Assembly: GCF_003334305.1 (NCBI RefSeq)
Contig: NZ_QOWS01000008.1
DNA length: 64,000 nucleotides
Reading direction: 5' to 3' (one strand)
DNA from: Escherichia coli
GTDB taxonomy: Bacteria; Pseudomonadota; Gammaproteobacteria; Enterobacterales; Enterobacteriaceae
Shown here: piece after piece, positions 16,893 through 60,410 of the stretch
Layout of the letters: each line of letters begins with the position of its first letter
Numbering within the stretch: the stretch's first letter is position 1
Position numbers and translations under genes: made by a program
The notes under the pieces: model-generated
Databases searched by the model: none
Told to the model about the DNA's origin: nothing
What the model saw: only the letters and a program-made list of their open reading frames with translations

Positions 16893-17010
16893 GATTTCGT
16901 CCTTTTTAAGGTGGTTATTTACACCTTAGCGCAAAGCGGACGTGGTTCCTACTGGAGTGCGCATAACGAACACAAGCACTCCCGTGGATAAATTGAGAAC
17001 GAAAGATCAA

Positions 17011-17103
17011 AAAAAAAGCCAGCACCCGGCTGGCTAAGTAATACTGGAAGCAATGTGAGCAATGTCGTGCTTTCAGGTTCTCCGCGAGGGTCTTCCTGAT
17101 CGC
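17011..17103 (-). ncRNA. ryhB: RyhB iron-starvation small RNA
   Basis: Reverse complement of 17103..17011 reads GCGATCAGGAAGACCCTCGCGGAGAACCTGAAAGCACGACATTGCTCACATTGCTTCCAGTATTACTTAGCCAGCCGGGTGCTGGCTTTTTTTT, the RyhB sequence with its terminator hairpin and U-tract; located between yhhX and yhhY as in K-12. Confidence 0.93.
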
Positions 17104-17224: not shown

Positions 17225-17713
17225 ATGAGTGAGATAGTAATACGCCACGCAGAAACACGGGATTACGAGGCCATCAGGCAGATTCACGCCCAGCCGGAGG
17301 TGTATTGCAACACACTACAGGTGCCTCATCCTTCCGATCATATGTGGCAGGAGCGACTCGCCGATCGTCCCGGCATCAAGCAACTCGTCGCCTGTATTGA
17401 TGGAGACGTCGTGGGCCATCTCACCATTGACGTGCAACAGCGCCCACGCCGCAGTCATGTTGCCGATTTTGGTATCTGTGTCGACTCTCGTTGGAAGAAC
17501 CGCGGCGTCGCCAGCGCCCTGATGCGAGAGATGATTGAAATGTGCGACAACTGGTTGCGGGTAGATCGCATTGAACTAACCGTGTTTGTCGATAACGCCC
17601 CGGCAATTAAGGTCTATAAAAAATACGGCTTTGAAATTGAAGGGACTGGTAAGAAGTACGCATTGCGTAATGGTGAATATGTCGATGCATATTATATGGC
17701 GCGGGTGAAGTAA
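17225..17713 (+). CDS. yhhY: GNAT-family N-acetyltransferase
   Basis: Recognised protein begins MSEIVIRHAETRDYEAIRQIHAQPEV at internal ATG 17225 (162 aa) preceded by AAGAGGACAAAGGA; ORF track start 17147 lies inside the ryhB promoter region. Confidence 0.9.
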   Translation: MSEIVIRHAETRDYEAIRQIHAQPEVYCNTLQVPHPSDHMWQERLADRPGIKQLVACIDGDVVGHLTIDVQQRPRRSHVADFGICVDSRWKNRGVASALMREMIEMCDNWLRVDRIELTVFVDNAPAIKVYKKYGFEIEGTGKKYALRNGEYVDAYYMARVK

Positions 17714-17949
17714 GATAGTGCCCTTTTTCTGAGATGGAAAAAGGGTGTCATTCAAAATCGACATACCTTCCTTTAAGGTATTTATTTGCCCAATACATAT
17801 ATTGAGATTTAACTCATAATTACTTCCTAAAGTGTAATATTTTATTTTTTAATATATACGCCTACAATTTCCTGGAGTAAATAAATAACAATTAACAAGC
17901 ATAATATTGCCATTGATAAAATAGCATGCCATAAAAGGACTTTTCAGGG

Positions 17950-19128
17950 ATGAGTAATATTGTTTACCTGACAGTAACGGGAGAACAACAAGGAAGCATC
18001 TCCGCAGGTTGTGGGACTTCTGAGTCTACAGGTAATCGTTGGCAGAGCGGGCATGAGGATGAAATATTTACATTCTCACTCTTAAATAATATTAATAATA
18101 CGGGGCTTGGTTCACAGTTCCATGGTATAACATTTTGTAAATTAATTGATAAAAGCACTCCATTATTTATTAATTCCATTAACAATAATGAACAATTATT
18201 TATGGGATTTGACTTCTATCGAATAAATAGATTTGGTAGATGGGAAAAGTATTATTATATACAACTAAAAGGCGCTTTTTTATCGGCTATTCATCATCAG
18301 ATCATTCAAAATCAACTGGATACAGAAACAATAACTGTTAGTTATGAATTTATCCTCTGTCAACATCTTATCGCAAATACCGAGTTCAGCTATTTGGCAC
18401 TCCCTGAAAATTATAACCGTTTGTTTTTACCAAATTCAAAAAACCAAACAAATAATCGTTTCAAAACGTTAAACAGCAAAGCTATTGGCAGGCTACTTGC
18501 TGCTGGTGGCGTATACAATGGGAACATTGAAGGATTCAGAGATACTGCGGAAAAACTGGGTGGAGATGCAATAAAAGGCTATGATCAAATACTAAATGAA
18601 AAAACAGCGGGCATAGCGATAGCAACAGCATCTATTCTTTTAACAAAGCGTTCTAATGTTGATACATATACAGAAATAAATAGTTACTTAGGCAAACTTA
18701 GAGGTCAACAAAAACTTCTTGATGGTATAGACATAATAGAAATAATATACATTAAGAGACCTTCAAAAGACTTAGCTAACTTACGAAAGGAGTTTAATAA
18801 AACTGTAAGAAAAAATTTTCTTATCAAACTTGCAAAAACCTCCGAAGCATCTGGAAGATTCAACGCCGAAGACCTTTTAAGAATGAGAAAGGGCAATGTT
18901 CCTCTAAATTATAATGTTCACCATAAACTATCTCTAGATGATGGTGGTACTAATGATTTCGAAAATTTAGTATTAATCGAAAACGAACCATATCATAAAG
19001 TTTTTACTAACATGCAATCACGAATAGCTAAGGGAATATTAGTAGGTGAAAGCAAAATCACTCCCTGGGCCATTCCATCTGGCTCAATTTATCCTCCCAT
19101 GAAAAATATTATGGACCACACAAAATGA
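17950..19128 (+). CDS. yhhZ: Hcp-family protein fused to C-terminal HNH (colicin-DNase-like) nuclease domain; orphan polymorphic toxin
   Basis: 392-aa ORF in AT-rich DNA; N-terminal approx 150 aa Hcp-like; C-terminus NYNVHHKLSLDDGGTNDFENLVLIENEPYHK fits the HH..N..H HNH signature. Confidence 0.85.
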   Translation: MSNIVYLTVTGEQQGSISAGCGTSESTGNRWQSGHEDEIFTFSLLNNINNTGLGSQFHGITFCKLIDKSTPLFINSINNNEQLFMGFDFYRINRFGRWEKYYYIQLKGAFLSAIHHQIIQNQLDTETITVSYEFILCQHLIANTEFSYLALPENYNRLFLPNSKNQTNNRFKTLNSKAIGRLLAAGGVYNGNIEGFRDTAEKLGGDAIKGYDQILNEKTAGIAIATASILLTKRSNVDTYTEINSYLGKLRGQQKLLDGIDIIEIIYIKRPSKDLANLRKEFNKTVRKNFLIKLAKTSEASGRFNAEDLLRMRKGNVPLNYNVHHKLSLDDGGTNDFENLVLIENEPYHKVFTNMQSRIAKGILVGESKITPWAIPSGSIYPPMKNIMDHTK

Positions 19129-19619
19129 TGACTAAAACCCAAATAAATAAATTAATAAAAATGATGAATGATTTAGACTATCCATTTGAAGCACCGCTCA
19201 AGGAATCATTTATTGAAAGTATAATCCAAATAGAATTTAATTCTAATTCAACTAATTGCCTGGAGAAGTTATGTAATGAAGTTAGTATTCTTTTTAAGAA
19301 TCAACCTGATTATCTTACTTTTTTAAGAGCAATGGATGGATTCGAAGTTAATGGATTACGATTATTTAGCCTCTCGATTCCAGAACCTTCAGTTAAAAAC
19401 CTTTTTGCCGTAAATGAATTTTATAGAAATAATGATGATTTCATAAACCCTGATCTACAAGAACGGTTAGTGATCGGGGATGATAGCATTTCAATATTTA
19501 CTTATGACATTAAAAGTAACTTTTTTGAAATTAGAGATAATATTGGCACAGAAAATATATTCAGTTCGTTTAGTGATTTCTCTTCATTCTTAAACGAAAT
19601 CATGGACAGTTGTTCATAA
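19125..19619 (+). CDS. yrhA: putative cognate immunity protein of the Hcp-HNH toxin
   Basis: 164-aa acidic ORF whose ATG overlaps the yhhZ stop (ATGA); same AT-rich composition; position corresponds to yrhA, which in K-12 is disrupted by IS1 (no IS1 here). Confidence 0.6.
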   Translation: MMTKTQINKLIKMMNDLDYPFEAPLKESFIESIIQIEFNSNSTNCLEKLCNEVSILFKNQPDYLTFLRAMDGFEVNGLRLFSLSIPEPSVKNLFAVNEFYRNNDDFINPDLQERLVIGDDSISIFTYDIKSNFFEIRDNIGTENIFSSFSDFSSFLNEIMDSCS

Positions 19620-19713
19620 TAATCAAAAGGAAACAAAAATCATTGTAAACCATGCCATCTTTTTAGAGATTACCAGCAGAAAATTCCTTGTTCGAAATTT
19701 AGCAGTGCAAGCT

Positions 19714-19869
19714 ATGGAAAAACTTACAACGGAACTACACTCCTTAAGTGAGATGGACCGAAGACATGTAGTCTCTATTTTAGCCGAAATAGCTAATGGC
19801 TATGATGATTTTAATGACATGTTGATTTATTTAGAATTTTACCCGAATCATAAGATTCTGATATCTTAA
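19714..19869 (+). CDS. small ORF (51 aa) in degenerate tail of the toxin islet
   Basis: ATG..TAA reading MEKLTTELHSLSEMDRRHVVSILAEIANGYDDFNDMLIYLEFYPNHKILIS; below ORF-track cutoff; possibly the small gene annotated yrhD in K-12, not verified. Confidence 0.3.
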   Translation: MEKLTTELHSLSEMDRRHVVSILAEIANGYDDFNDMLIYLEFYPNHKILIS

Positions 19870-20068
19870 ATAAGAAAATCCCGTTCGACGTTCTGAAAAA
19901 GAAATCATAAAATATTAGCAGATACTTATTTCGTGACTATATCTTATCCGATGAACTTTTTTCAAAACCAGCATTTAATAATATCTTTGACGAAGATGAA
20001 CGCGTCTTTGCTCAATGTATCACACAGGAATAATAATATAACACTCAACAATAATATTTATTATAATT

Positions 20069-20353
20069 ATGATTACTTATCACGACGCATTCGCGAAAGC
20101 GAACCATTACCTTGATGATGCAGATCTCCCGGTCGTCATTACTCTACATGGACGCTTTAGCCAGGGCTGGTATTTCTGTTTCGAAGCACGAGAATTTCTC
20201 GAAACTGGAGATGAGGCCGCGCGCTTAGCTGGTAACGCACCTTTTATTATTGATAAAGACAGTGGTGAAATTCATTCTCTGGGAACGGCAAAGCCGCTGG
20301 AAGAATATCTACAGGATTACGAAATAAAAAAGGCTACCTTCGGCTTGCCCTGA
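20069..20353 (+). CDS. yrhB: small heat-stable chaperone-like protein
   Basis: 94-aa ORF MITYHDAFAKANHYLDDADLPVVITLHGRFSQGWYFCFEAREFLETGDEAARLAGNAPFIIDKDSGEIHSLGTAKPLEEYLQDYEIKKATFGLP recognised as YrhB. Confidence 0.88.
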   Translation: MITYHDAFAKANHYLDDADLPVVITLHGRFSQGWYFCFEAREFLETGDEAARLAGNAPFIIDKDSGEIHSLGTAKPLEEYLQDYEIKKATFGLP

Positions 20354-33665: not shown

Positions 33666-33706
33666 TCGTCAAGTTTGATTTCAAAAGTGATGACCAACGA
33701 GAAATT

Positions 33707-33806
<100 letters not shown>

Positions 33807-33864
33807 TGAAGCAACGTACTCGATATTAGCAATTTGGCGGCAACCCAAAGTTGCCGATTAATGA

Positions 33865-34968
33865 TTACTTCGCATCGGTTGCCGTGCCGTTGGCGTGCCA
33901 GTCAAATACGCCGAACTCAAAGCCTTTCAGATCGCCTTTCTCATCCCACGTCAGCGGCCCCATCACGGTATCAACCGAGTTCGCTTTCAGGTATTTGGCG
34001 ATTTCAGCCGGATCGTCAGACTGATTCAGGCCCGCCTGCAAAGATTGCAGCGCGGCGTAGGTGGTCCAGACGAACGCGCCACTTGGATCCTGTTTTTTCG
34101 CTTTGATGGCGTCAACAATGGGTTTGTTCGCCGGAACCTGATCGTAGTTCTTCGGCTTGGTCACCAGCAGCCCTTCCGCTGATTCGCCCGCAATGTTAGA
34201 CAGCGAAACGTTAGCCACACCTTCCGGCCCCATAAACTGAGTTTTCAGCCCTGCCGCGCGTGCCTGACGCAGGATTTGCCCCATTTCCGGGTGATAACCG
34301 CCGTAGTAAACGAAGTCGATATTCTCTTTTTTCAGACGCGCCACCAGCGTTGAGAAATCTTTTTCCCCGGCGGTGATACCATCAAAGAACACCACGTTAG
34401 CATTGCCTTTCTTCAGGCCGTCCTGCACCGCTCGCGCCAGACCTTCGCCGTATTGCTGTTTGTCGTGAACGATAGCAATACGCTGCGGTTTCACTTTCTC
34501 AAGAATATATTTCGCCGCCGTCGGCCCCTGGTCGGAGTCCAGGCCGGTGGTGCGCAGGATCAGCTGATAGCCACGGGCGGTCAGCTCCGGCGCGGTTGCC
34601 GCTGGGGTGATCATTAAAATGCCTTCGTCTTCGTAGATGTCAGACGCAGGCTGCGTTGATGAAGAACAGAGGTGACCAATCACATATTTAATGCCGTCGT
34701 TAACGACTTTGTTCGCCACCGCAACCGCCTGTTTCGGGTCACAGGCATCGTCATATTTTACGATTTGCAGTTTGTTGCCTTTAATGCCGCCTTTAGCGTT
34801 GATATCCGCAACCGCCTGCTCTGCGCCGGTAAACTCCTGGTCACCGTACTGCGCAACCGGACCGGACATTGCGCCCACGACCGCGACTTTAATATCTTCT
34901 GCCAGAGCCATATTGCTGAATGCCAGCGCGATACATCCTGCCAGTAACGCTTTACCCTTTATATTCAT
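33865..34968 (-). CDS. livJ: Leu/Ile/Val periplasmic binding protein
   Basis: Recognised protein starts [23 protein letters not shown] at ATG 34968 (367 aa); ORF track extends to 35025. Confidence 0.94.
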
Positions 34969-60045: not shown

Positions 60046-60410
60046 AATCGACCCGCCATAATCCCTGTAAGCAAACGACGCGTGTTACAACTGCCGCCGA
60101 ACGACGTTCAGCGGATTCTTCCATCCGGGATAAGAAGGAAACGGCAAATACGACCAGCGCGCAGAGCATTGAGCGCCAACGGGGAAGGCTTAGTGAAAAC
60201 GGGTAGTAATGTTGTCATCATCAGCATTCCTGGCCGTAAATGAAACACGCATACTCATAAGTGTGATCTATAAAACTGGCTGACAAAACGGTATCCATCC
60301 TGTTGGATAGCGTTTCACGCCTGTTCAGTTGCAGGAACAGAGCATTCCTTTTTACGTTTTATCAACAGTCTCAACCAGATAGTAACATTAATATTCATGT
60401 TGTCTATGGT

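Follow-up and report, generated by a model that had tools for sequence, protein, structure and literature searches.

An AT-rich islet in a 64,000-nucleotide window of the Escherichia coli chromosome (contig NZ_QOWS01000008.1; all positions given without an accession refer to this window) carries the gene yhhZ and, directly downstream, a small acidic open reading frame (ORF), yrhA. We find that this locus is very probably an orphan type VI secretion system (T6SS) effector-immunity pair, namely the E. coli yhhZ-yrhA genes published as Hcp-ET1/ETI1. The first gene, yhhZ or hcp-ET1 (17950..19128, plus strand), was recognized from the ORF list and by its identity to known YhhZ, and encodes a 392-residue specialised Hcp with a predicted HNH DNase toxin. 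The second gene, yrhA or ETI1 (19125..19619, plus strand), encodes an acidic protein of 164 residues, which the NCBIfam family NF038335 and a predicted SUKH fold mark as an immunity protein of the SUKH superfamily. The assignment is based on the domains of the two proteins, the intact catalytic core, the SUKH fold, the conserved linkage of toxin and immunity genes, and the near-identity to the published pair.

The cassette as such is already known: it is the published Hcp-ET1/ETI1 (yhhZ/yrhA) effector-immunity pair, a point that the preliminary description of this DNA, made from the sequence alone, had omitted. Each of the two proteins is 99% identical to its counterpart in E. coli O104:H4 strain C227-11, YhhZ to AAF13_RS24950 and YrhA to AAF13_RS24945, encoded at the same yhhY-ggt site. 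According to a review of T6SS in E. coli, which cites this strain and locus, Hcp-ET1 was named by Ma et al. (2017, Virulence 8:1189), degrades the DNA of target cells, is delivered in a T6SS2-dependent manner and carries the tag AAF13_24945 (PMC6730261). Secondary sources describe an HNH DNase with a cognate immunity protein and report the T6SS2 dependence for strain STEC004, and Hcp-ET1/ETi1 is listed as an effector-immunity pair in a second review (PMC6099711). Additionally, a preprint on another Shiga toxin-producing E. coli describes the same orphan Hcp-HNH gene, with 99% identity to Hcp-ET1, and downstream of it a gene 99.4% identical to ETI1 (10.1101/2024.03.05.583533). Compared with this published pair (STEC004 and C227-11; YhhZ b3442 and YrhA b3443 in K-12), the window has the same genes at the same site, the same Hcp plus HNH architecture and the same 164-residue partner, while its YhhZ differs from Hcp-ET1 by five conservative substitutions, none of them in the HNH core.

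On our assignment, what the AT-rich islet holds, an Hcp fused to a toxin and, overlapping it, a small ORF for an acidic protein, would be a genuine T6SS effector-immunity pair. The K-12 reference annotation understates the locus, which appears there as a 'putative endonuclease YhhZ', a yrhA pseudogene and, for the neighbouring yrhB, a 'putative heat shock chaperone'. What we add concerns the SUKH membership of YrhA, the Imm35 membership of YrhB and the reuse of the nuclease-immunity module. These additions leave the identity of the locus unchanged, and the cassette is an ordinary one in E. coli, but they could guide annotation and experiments on one nuclease domain across different delivery systems.

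Domain architecture of YhhZ

YhhZ of the window is 99% identical to the K-12-type YhhZ of laboratory strain BM28 and belongs to a protein cluster of 13,190 member sequences. The preliminary description had proposed a fusion of an Hcp domain and an HNH nuclease; this proposal is borne out, with the Hcp part recognized by sequence profiles and the HNH part by conservation together with AlphaFold2 modelling and Foldseek comparison. The Hcp/TssD tube-protein domain spans residues 1-147 (17950..18390, plus strand). Specifically, the NCBIfam model TIGR03344 (Hcp1/TssD) matches these residues over model positions 1-161 of 167 with an E-value of 6.2e-34 and a score of 117.3 bits, well above the curated cut-off of 58.9 bits, and Pfam T6SS_HCP (PF05638) matches with an E-value of 3.9e-11. 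Solved Hcp structures are matched as well, including 3he1 (Hcp3, 1.7e-11), 6a2v and 5mxn, with E-values of 1e-9 to 1e-11. Judged from these matches, the N-terminus of YhhZ is a member of the T6SS tube protein family Hcp/TssD; for Hcp-ET1, hexamer formation and secretion are reported by secondary sources. A search with the Hcp domain of YhhZ alone returned only close relatives of the 'evolved Hcp' clade and no cluster-encoded Hcp. Separately, we observed a second Hcp gene, 76% identical to the YhhZ Hcp domain, on E. coli contig CAJSHX010000061.1 (7001-7483); it lies at another site, after udp-rmuC-ubiE-ysgA-like genes, is cut by the contig end, and may belong to the Hcp-ET clade as well.

The nuclease domain is assigned to residues 244-385 (18679..19104, plus strand) from conservation, the AlphaFold2 model and Foldseek. 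Within it, a beta-beta-alpha-metal core covers residues 321-360 (18910-19029, plus strand) and includes H324, H325, D330, D331, N335, N339 and H349, while the HNH motif NYNVHHKLSLDDGGTNDFENLVLIENEPYHK corresponds to residues 320-350. Pfam HNH (PF01844) gives only a weak match to YhhZ, restricted to residues 322-343 (i-Evalue 0.013); for the Enterobacter homologue and the phage LXG homologue the E-values are 0.046 and 0.004. Since this profile alone is marginal, the C-terminus was checked independently by conservation and fold. An alignment of 37 homologues, 51-98% identical, leaves H324, H325, D330, D331, G333, N335, N339 and H349 invariant. The AlphaFold2 model of residues 172-392 has a mean predicted local distance difference test (pLDDT) score of 83.7, with values above 90 over the nuclease part. 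In this model, a β-strand at residues 321-325 with the two histidines at its end is followed by a second strand at 340-344 and by a helix at 348-360 that starts near H349. When this model is compared with the PDB by Foldseek, the DNase domains of pyocins S2 and AP41 and of ColE7 and ColE9 come out on top, with a probability of 1.0, about 80 aligned residues, which make up the catalytic core, and a target template modelling (TM) score of about 0.41-0.45. Conservation and modelling together confirm the C-terminus of YhhZ as a His-Me finger/HNH nuclease with a predicted intact catalytic core. The reading itself is not new: Blondel et al. already described YhhZ as an 'evolved Hcp' and noted its HNH domain in 2009 (PMC2907695), and it was classified in His-Me finger group 32 in 2017 (PMC5714182).

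Membership in the colicin/pyocin DNase family was considered and rejected on sequence, Col-Pyo_DNase (PF21431) giving no significant sequence-profile match to YhhZ (E-value 1.9); the two belong to the same superfamily and share the catalytic fold, but they are different families. Of the profile searches that the preliminary description had suggested as a check, that for Hcp is clear, that for HNH marginal and that for colicin DNase negative. The likeness to colicins E7 and E9 and pyocins S2 and AP41 extends beyond the His-Me finger fold, as these too are non-specific DNase toxins, each countered by a small acidic protein whose gene comes immediately after. The immunity proteins of colicins and pyocins, however, adopt a four-helix Im fold, whereas YrhA is predicted to adopt the SUKH alpha/beta fold, and their toxins enter by receptor-mediated import, whereas YhhZ would be delivered by a T6SS. 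Other specialised Hcps, Hcp-ET2 to ET5 and Usp, likewise combine an Hcp core with a C-terminal toxin followed by one or more immunity genes (PMC6730261; PMC2907695), but their toxin domains, a Tle1 lipase, pyocin S3, a colicin DNase and a papain-like peptidase, differ from that of YhhZ.

Between the Hcp and nuclease domains lies a conserved helical segment, residues 172-243 (18463..18678, plus strand), which begins KTLNSKAIGRLLAAGGVYNGN and was delineated from the alignment and the AlphaFold2 model. It is modelled as four helices with pLDDT values of 72-88, followed by a disordered linker. The segment is common to the toxins with a DUF8093 N-terminus and to the plasmid-type toxins described below, and is absent from the LXG toxin; it may serve as a linker or as an entry domain.

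YrhA and reuse of the nuclease-immunity module

The junction of the two genes at 19122-19131 reads aaaATGAtga, so that the yrhA start codon (19125-19127) overlaps the yhhZ stop codon (19126-19128) in a 4-nucleotide ATGA. Both this overlap and the acidic character of the 164-residue product, pointed out in the preliminary description, hold: YrhA has a calculated isoelectric point (pI) of 4.26, with 26 Asp plus Glu against 13 Lys plus Arg, and the toxin C-terminal domain is basic, with a pI of 9.56. The overlap is not conserved, the Citrobacter and Enterobacter loci having gaps of about 15-20 nucleotides; the conserved feature is tight linkage rather than the ATGA itself.

YrhA is matched by NF038335, the NCBIfam YrhA family, over residues 4-163 with an E-value of 1.5e-36 and 125.5 bits (cut-off 55). 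As a single sequence it has no match in Pfam, and against PDB sequences it returns only antibody noise. A profile search of 1.84 billion protein representatives, by comparison, recovered 116 relatives. In an alignment of 79 such sequences, SMI1_KNR4 (SUKH-1) is matched by 29 members, SUKH_6 by 21 and SUKH_5 by 15, and the family profile finds 2icg (Lin2918) in the PDB with an E-value of 2e-5. The AlphaFold model of YrhA has a pLDDT of 89.2 and a predicted TM score of 0.86. In Foldseek, the four best PDB hits of this model are two chains of YobK (2prv), Lin2918 (2icg) and BF1740 (3d5p), each with a probability of at least 0.99 and TM scores of 0.48-0.57, followed by PSPTO_5518 (2pag) with a probability of 0.54. 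These structures make up the classic SUKH set, and YobK is the immunity partner of the Bacillus subtilis LXG toxin YobL. On profile and model evidence, YrhA thus belongs to the SUKH (SMI1/KNR4) immunity superfamily, a mildly new point, and the earlier suggestion that the downstream ORF is the immunity gene gains further weight from a YrhA-family gene that follows the nuclease in every locus examined.

The nuclease module, comprising the C-terminal ~220 residues of YhhZ, occurs behind several different N-termini. Behind Hcp it is found in E. coli and Citrobacter; behind a PF26362/DUF8093 N-terminus in Enterobacter, Leclercia, Klebsiella, Pantoea, Serratia and Erwinia; and, in Pantoea and on plasmids of the IncHI2 type, behind a third N-terminus. 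In Bacillus SPbeta-like phages, an LXG domain (E-value 4e-57) precedes the nuclease core of 142 residues. A YrhA-family gene directly follows the nuclease domain in 7/7 loci examined, which represent four N-terminal architectures and include the window, C. koseri, C. freundii, E. roggenkampii, a Salmonella IncHI2A plasmid and phage SPR. Across the five loci compared with the window, YrhA identity declines in step with toxin identity. Specifically, the toxin C-terminal domain and the immunity protein are 72% and 68% identical in C. koseri, 67% and 66% in C. freundii, 67% and 62% in E. roggenkampii, 49% and 28% on the Salmonella IncHI2A plasmid, and 44% and 27% in Bacillus phage SPR. In these comparisons, the nuclease stands behind varied N-termini and diverges together with its immunity protein, the traits by which polymorphic toxin systems are defined. 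How wide a range of contexts makes use of the nuclease-immunity module is a mildly new point.

Three of these loci illustrate the range of contexts. In Enterobacter roggenkampii (CP056148.1, 8001-9663), DUF8093 (PF26362) takes the place of Hcp and a 166-residue YrhA homologue is encoded downstream; the neighbourhood is a housekeeping one, with no T6SS genes within 8 kb. On the Salmonella Cubana IncHI2A plasmid NC_021845.1 (3578-5155), a 353-residue 'HNH endonuclease' carries the module at 49% identity and is followed by a gene for a 168-residue YrhA-family protein, the two having a lytic transglycosylase/HAD gene pair on one side and traG on the other. The toxin-immunity pair is also present on annotated Pantoea and Enterobacter plasmids, and in all the module was found on 462 plasmid records, 433 of which are predicted to be conjugative. 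In Bacillus phage SPR (OM236515.1, 1558-3915), spr_26 encodes a 628-residue LXG protein whose last ~147 residues are 44-45% identical to YhhZ 244-385, and the downstream spr_27 (152 residues) matches the YrhA profile as a remote YrhA/SUKH relative. The same toxin-immunity pair is thus also used in a phage-borne toxin of Gram-positive, type VII style. The Bacillus LXG toxins with SUKH immunity proteins (YobL-YobK and spr_26/spr_27) therefore resemble YhhZ-YrhA, YobK being the best PDB match of the YrhA model, but they possess a trafficking domain of the Gram-positive type VII secretion type instead of Hcp and lack the segment equivalent to residues 172-243.

Distribution, mechanism and alternative explanations

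A 2.8-kb region covering the locus matches thousands of E. coli genomes. The yhhZ-yrhA pair is present in 3813/5426 complete E. coli genomes (~70%, at least 95% identity), always on the chromosome, and BL21 also carries the locus. The yhhY-ggt site of C. koseri and that of C. freundii encode an Hcp-HNH protein and an intact 164-residue YrhA; in Salmonella salamae the site has an Hcp stump together with Imm35. Since the site is occupied in Citrobacter and in Salmonella salamae, the cassette is an old resident rather than a recent insertion. In K-12 MG1655, yhhZ is intact and yrhA is a pseudogene split by IS1E, as the preliminary description had stated, whereas yrhA of the window is intact; the insertion truncates K-12 YrhA after residue 130, which in the AlphaFold2 model would remove two strands and the terminal helix. 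The further proposal that the uninterrupted yrhA represents the ancestral state is supported by the IS1E in K-12 and by the intact orthologues that Citrobacter has at this site. Within E. coli, the site varies. Strain TUM12355 has an IS3 in the leader upstream of yhhZ, ATCC 8739 has lost the 3' half of yhhZ and yrhA beside an IS1, another allele has a frameshifted DUF4225 pseudogene and a hypothetical gene between yhhY and ggt, and a further allele has yrhB only.

The mechanism that we favour for YhhZ and YrhA would proceed as follows. Through the Hcp domain formed by its N-terminal 147 residues, YhhZ would become part of an Hcp tube and be launched with it by a T6SS whose genes lie in another part of the genome. 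On firing it would enter a neighbouring cell, where the HNH DNase of residues 244-385 would degrade the recipient DNA. YrhA, made from the same transcript and presumably coupled in translation through its overlapping start codon, would bind the basic nuclease domain and thereby neutralise it in the producer and its kin. The complementary charges of toxin and YrhA (pI 9.6 versus 4.3) are suggestive only as a sign of binding. For DNase toxicity, neutralization by ETI1 and T6SS2 dependence we draw on the literature, and expression of the pair and delivery of the toxin in the source strain are what we infer.

Several observations weigh against this assignment. The tag AAF13_24945 given in the review is the RefSeq number of yrhA and not of the adjacent Hcp gene, and the publication was therefore mapped to the cassette rather than gene by gene. 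Toxicity, neutralization and T6SS2 dependence come from secondary descriptions (reviews and a preprint), the Pfam HNH match is only marginal, and copies of the cassette decayed by insertion sequences (IS) occur in several lineages. The window itself has no T6SS core genes, as judged from the collinear annotated genome and the remaining ORFs over all 64 kb, in line with the orphan status already proposed. Finally, K-12 retains an intact yhhZ beside its IS1-truncated yrhA, from which it follows that the toxin does no harm when natively expressed. A list of H-NS-bound promoter islands of K-12 includes both genes (PMC3661553); together with the tolerance of K-12, this listing indicates that native expression of yhhZ and yrhA is probably silenced.

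An explanation that we consider unlikely is that the cassette is an H-NS-silenced remnant that the source strain cannot deliver, kept by drift or only because YrhA protects against neighbours with the same toxin, and without an offensive role. Apart from the absence of T6SS genes from the 64 kb and the H-NS listing, it would account for the presence of the locus in both K-12 and BL21, when K-12 and B laboratory strains lack T6SS genes according to the review (PMC6730261), for the IS insertions and deletions in several lineages and for the mere Hcp stump retained in Salmonella salamae. It fits less well with two intact ORFs in the window, catalytic residues invariant across genera, retention of the cassette by 70% of complete E. 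coli genomes with an identity of at least 95%, and the T6SS2-dependent killing that the sources cited above report for a 99% identical allele. Quite improbable, in our estimate, is an explanation in which the nuclease-YrhA module is tied to no one delivery route and serves, in many hosts, mainly for something other than T6SS attack. Residues 172-243, which all enterobacterial versions share and the LXG version does not, might then be an autonomous domain for entry through the inner membrane or into the cytoplasm, or for another route such as conjugative transfer, and the chromosomal copy in T6SS-less E. coli might act mainly as immunity or as a reservoir for recombination. This explanation arises because the module occurs without Hcp at DUF8093 loci that lack T6SS genes and next to traG on hundreds of IncHI2-type conjugative plasmids.

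The Hcp-less nuclease-YrhA pairs behind DUF8093, with no T6SS genes within 8 kb, would suit an intracellular toxin-antitoxin, abortive-infection or addiction module, in which YhhZ acts in the producer, independently of any T6SS, once YrhA is lost or degraded. The 433 conjugative plasmids and the matches of the C-terminal domain to PHROG families point the same way, but we regard such a module as very unlikely: PADLOC has no match for YhhZ, YrhA, YrhD or YrhB, a toxin-first order with a SUKH fold is typical of polymorphic toxin systems and not of type II toxin-antitoxin systems, and YhhZ has a bona fide Hcp N-terminus for which the literature reports T6SS-dependent delivery. K-12 tolerates disruption of yrhA, which is evidence against addiction. 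As specific candidates, a type II toxin-antitoxin system was rejected on the downstream position of the protective gene, a SUKH fold without a DNA-binding domain and the tolerated truncation of yrhA in K-12, and a known anti-phage defence system was rejected because none of the four proteins is matched by PADLOC. It is barely credible, lastly, that YhhZ is a structural Hcp only, with a degenerate, non-catalytic HNH remnant as its extension and an unrelated downstream ORF, although Blondel et al. in 2009 called the HNH degenerate and did not tie YhhZ to T6SS function (PMC2907695), and Pfam scores the HNH only marginally. Every residue of the HNH core is invariant, the confident beta-beta-alpha model matches colicin DNases, the nuclease is 44% identical to the tip of an LXG toxin, a linked SUKH partner is conserved, and DNase activity was reported later in the literature on Hcp-ET1.

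Genomic setting and neighbouring genes

The islet lies in the E. coli chromosome in the gene order gntR, yhhW, yhhX, ryhB, yhhY, islet, ggt, yhhA, ugpQ. The guanine-plus-cytosine (GC) fraction falls to 0.29-0.34 over ~17650-20100, whereas the flanks have 0.50-0.58 and the window as a whole 0.517; by gene it is 0.34 for yhhZ, 0.29 for yrhA, 0.33 for yrhD and 0.46 for yrhB. The AT-richness that had been noticed by eye from the yhhY stop to yrhB is matched by a GC fraction of 0.32 over 17712-20052. This stretch (17712..20052) corresponds to a yhhZ-yrhA-yrhD module that yrhB-only E. coli genomes lack in its entirety, BLAST against the yrhB-only yhhY-ggt allele breaking at 17711 and 20053. A repeat search at the islet borders found only short AT-rich chance matches and no flanking repeats, and neither an integrase nor a tRNA is present at the site; a recently mobile element was rejected on the absence of all three.

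The AT-rich leader that runs from the end of yhhY to the start of yhhZ (17714..17949, plus strand) is, from its sequence, the presumed promoter region. A scan of the AT-rich DNA for promoter and terminator consensus sequences gave scores no higher than the shuffled expectation, and we claim no promoter for this reason; the promoters yhhZp5 and yhhZp7 have been predicted for yhhZ (PMC12428005). An Rfam scan returned nothing within the islet, its sole match being the RyhB small RNA (RF00057, 83 bits) just upstream, between yhhX and yhhY (17010-17074, minus strand).

Downstream of yrhA, within the indel module, yrhD (19714..19869, plus strand) is an acidic ORF of 51 residues, named after the YrhD annotation in RefSeq genomes; it has no family match in NCBIfam, PADLOC or PHROGs. 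Outside the indel, yrhB (20069..20353, plus strand) encodes a 94-residue protein matched by Pfam Imm35 (PF15567) with an E-value of 4.6e-23, and is retained in E. coli alleles that lack yhhZ-yrhA. In C. freundii and S. salamae, too, there is an Imm35 gene at this site. By its family match, yrhB is an Imm35 immunity-type gene, again a mildly new point; no partner toxin is visible for it.

Over 188-49015 the window is collinear with an annotated genome, from glgP to acpT, and the remaining ~15 kb contain nikA-E, yhhJ, rbbA, yhiI and two unknown ORFs. At 33668-33865, between panM and livJ, collinear BLAST blocks break where strain 401651 carries the ataR-ataT toxin-antitoxin pair, which is absent here. 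A second AT-rich tract at 60300-64000 (GC 0.33-0.43) holds two large minus-strand ORFs, one of 540 residues (60411-62033) and one of 485 residues (62295-63752), both without an NCBIfam or PADLOC match; the tract is probably another horizontally acquired, H-NS-type region.

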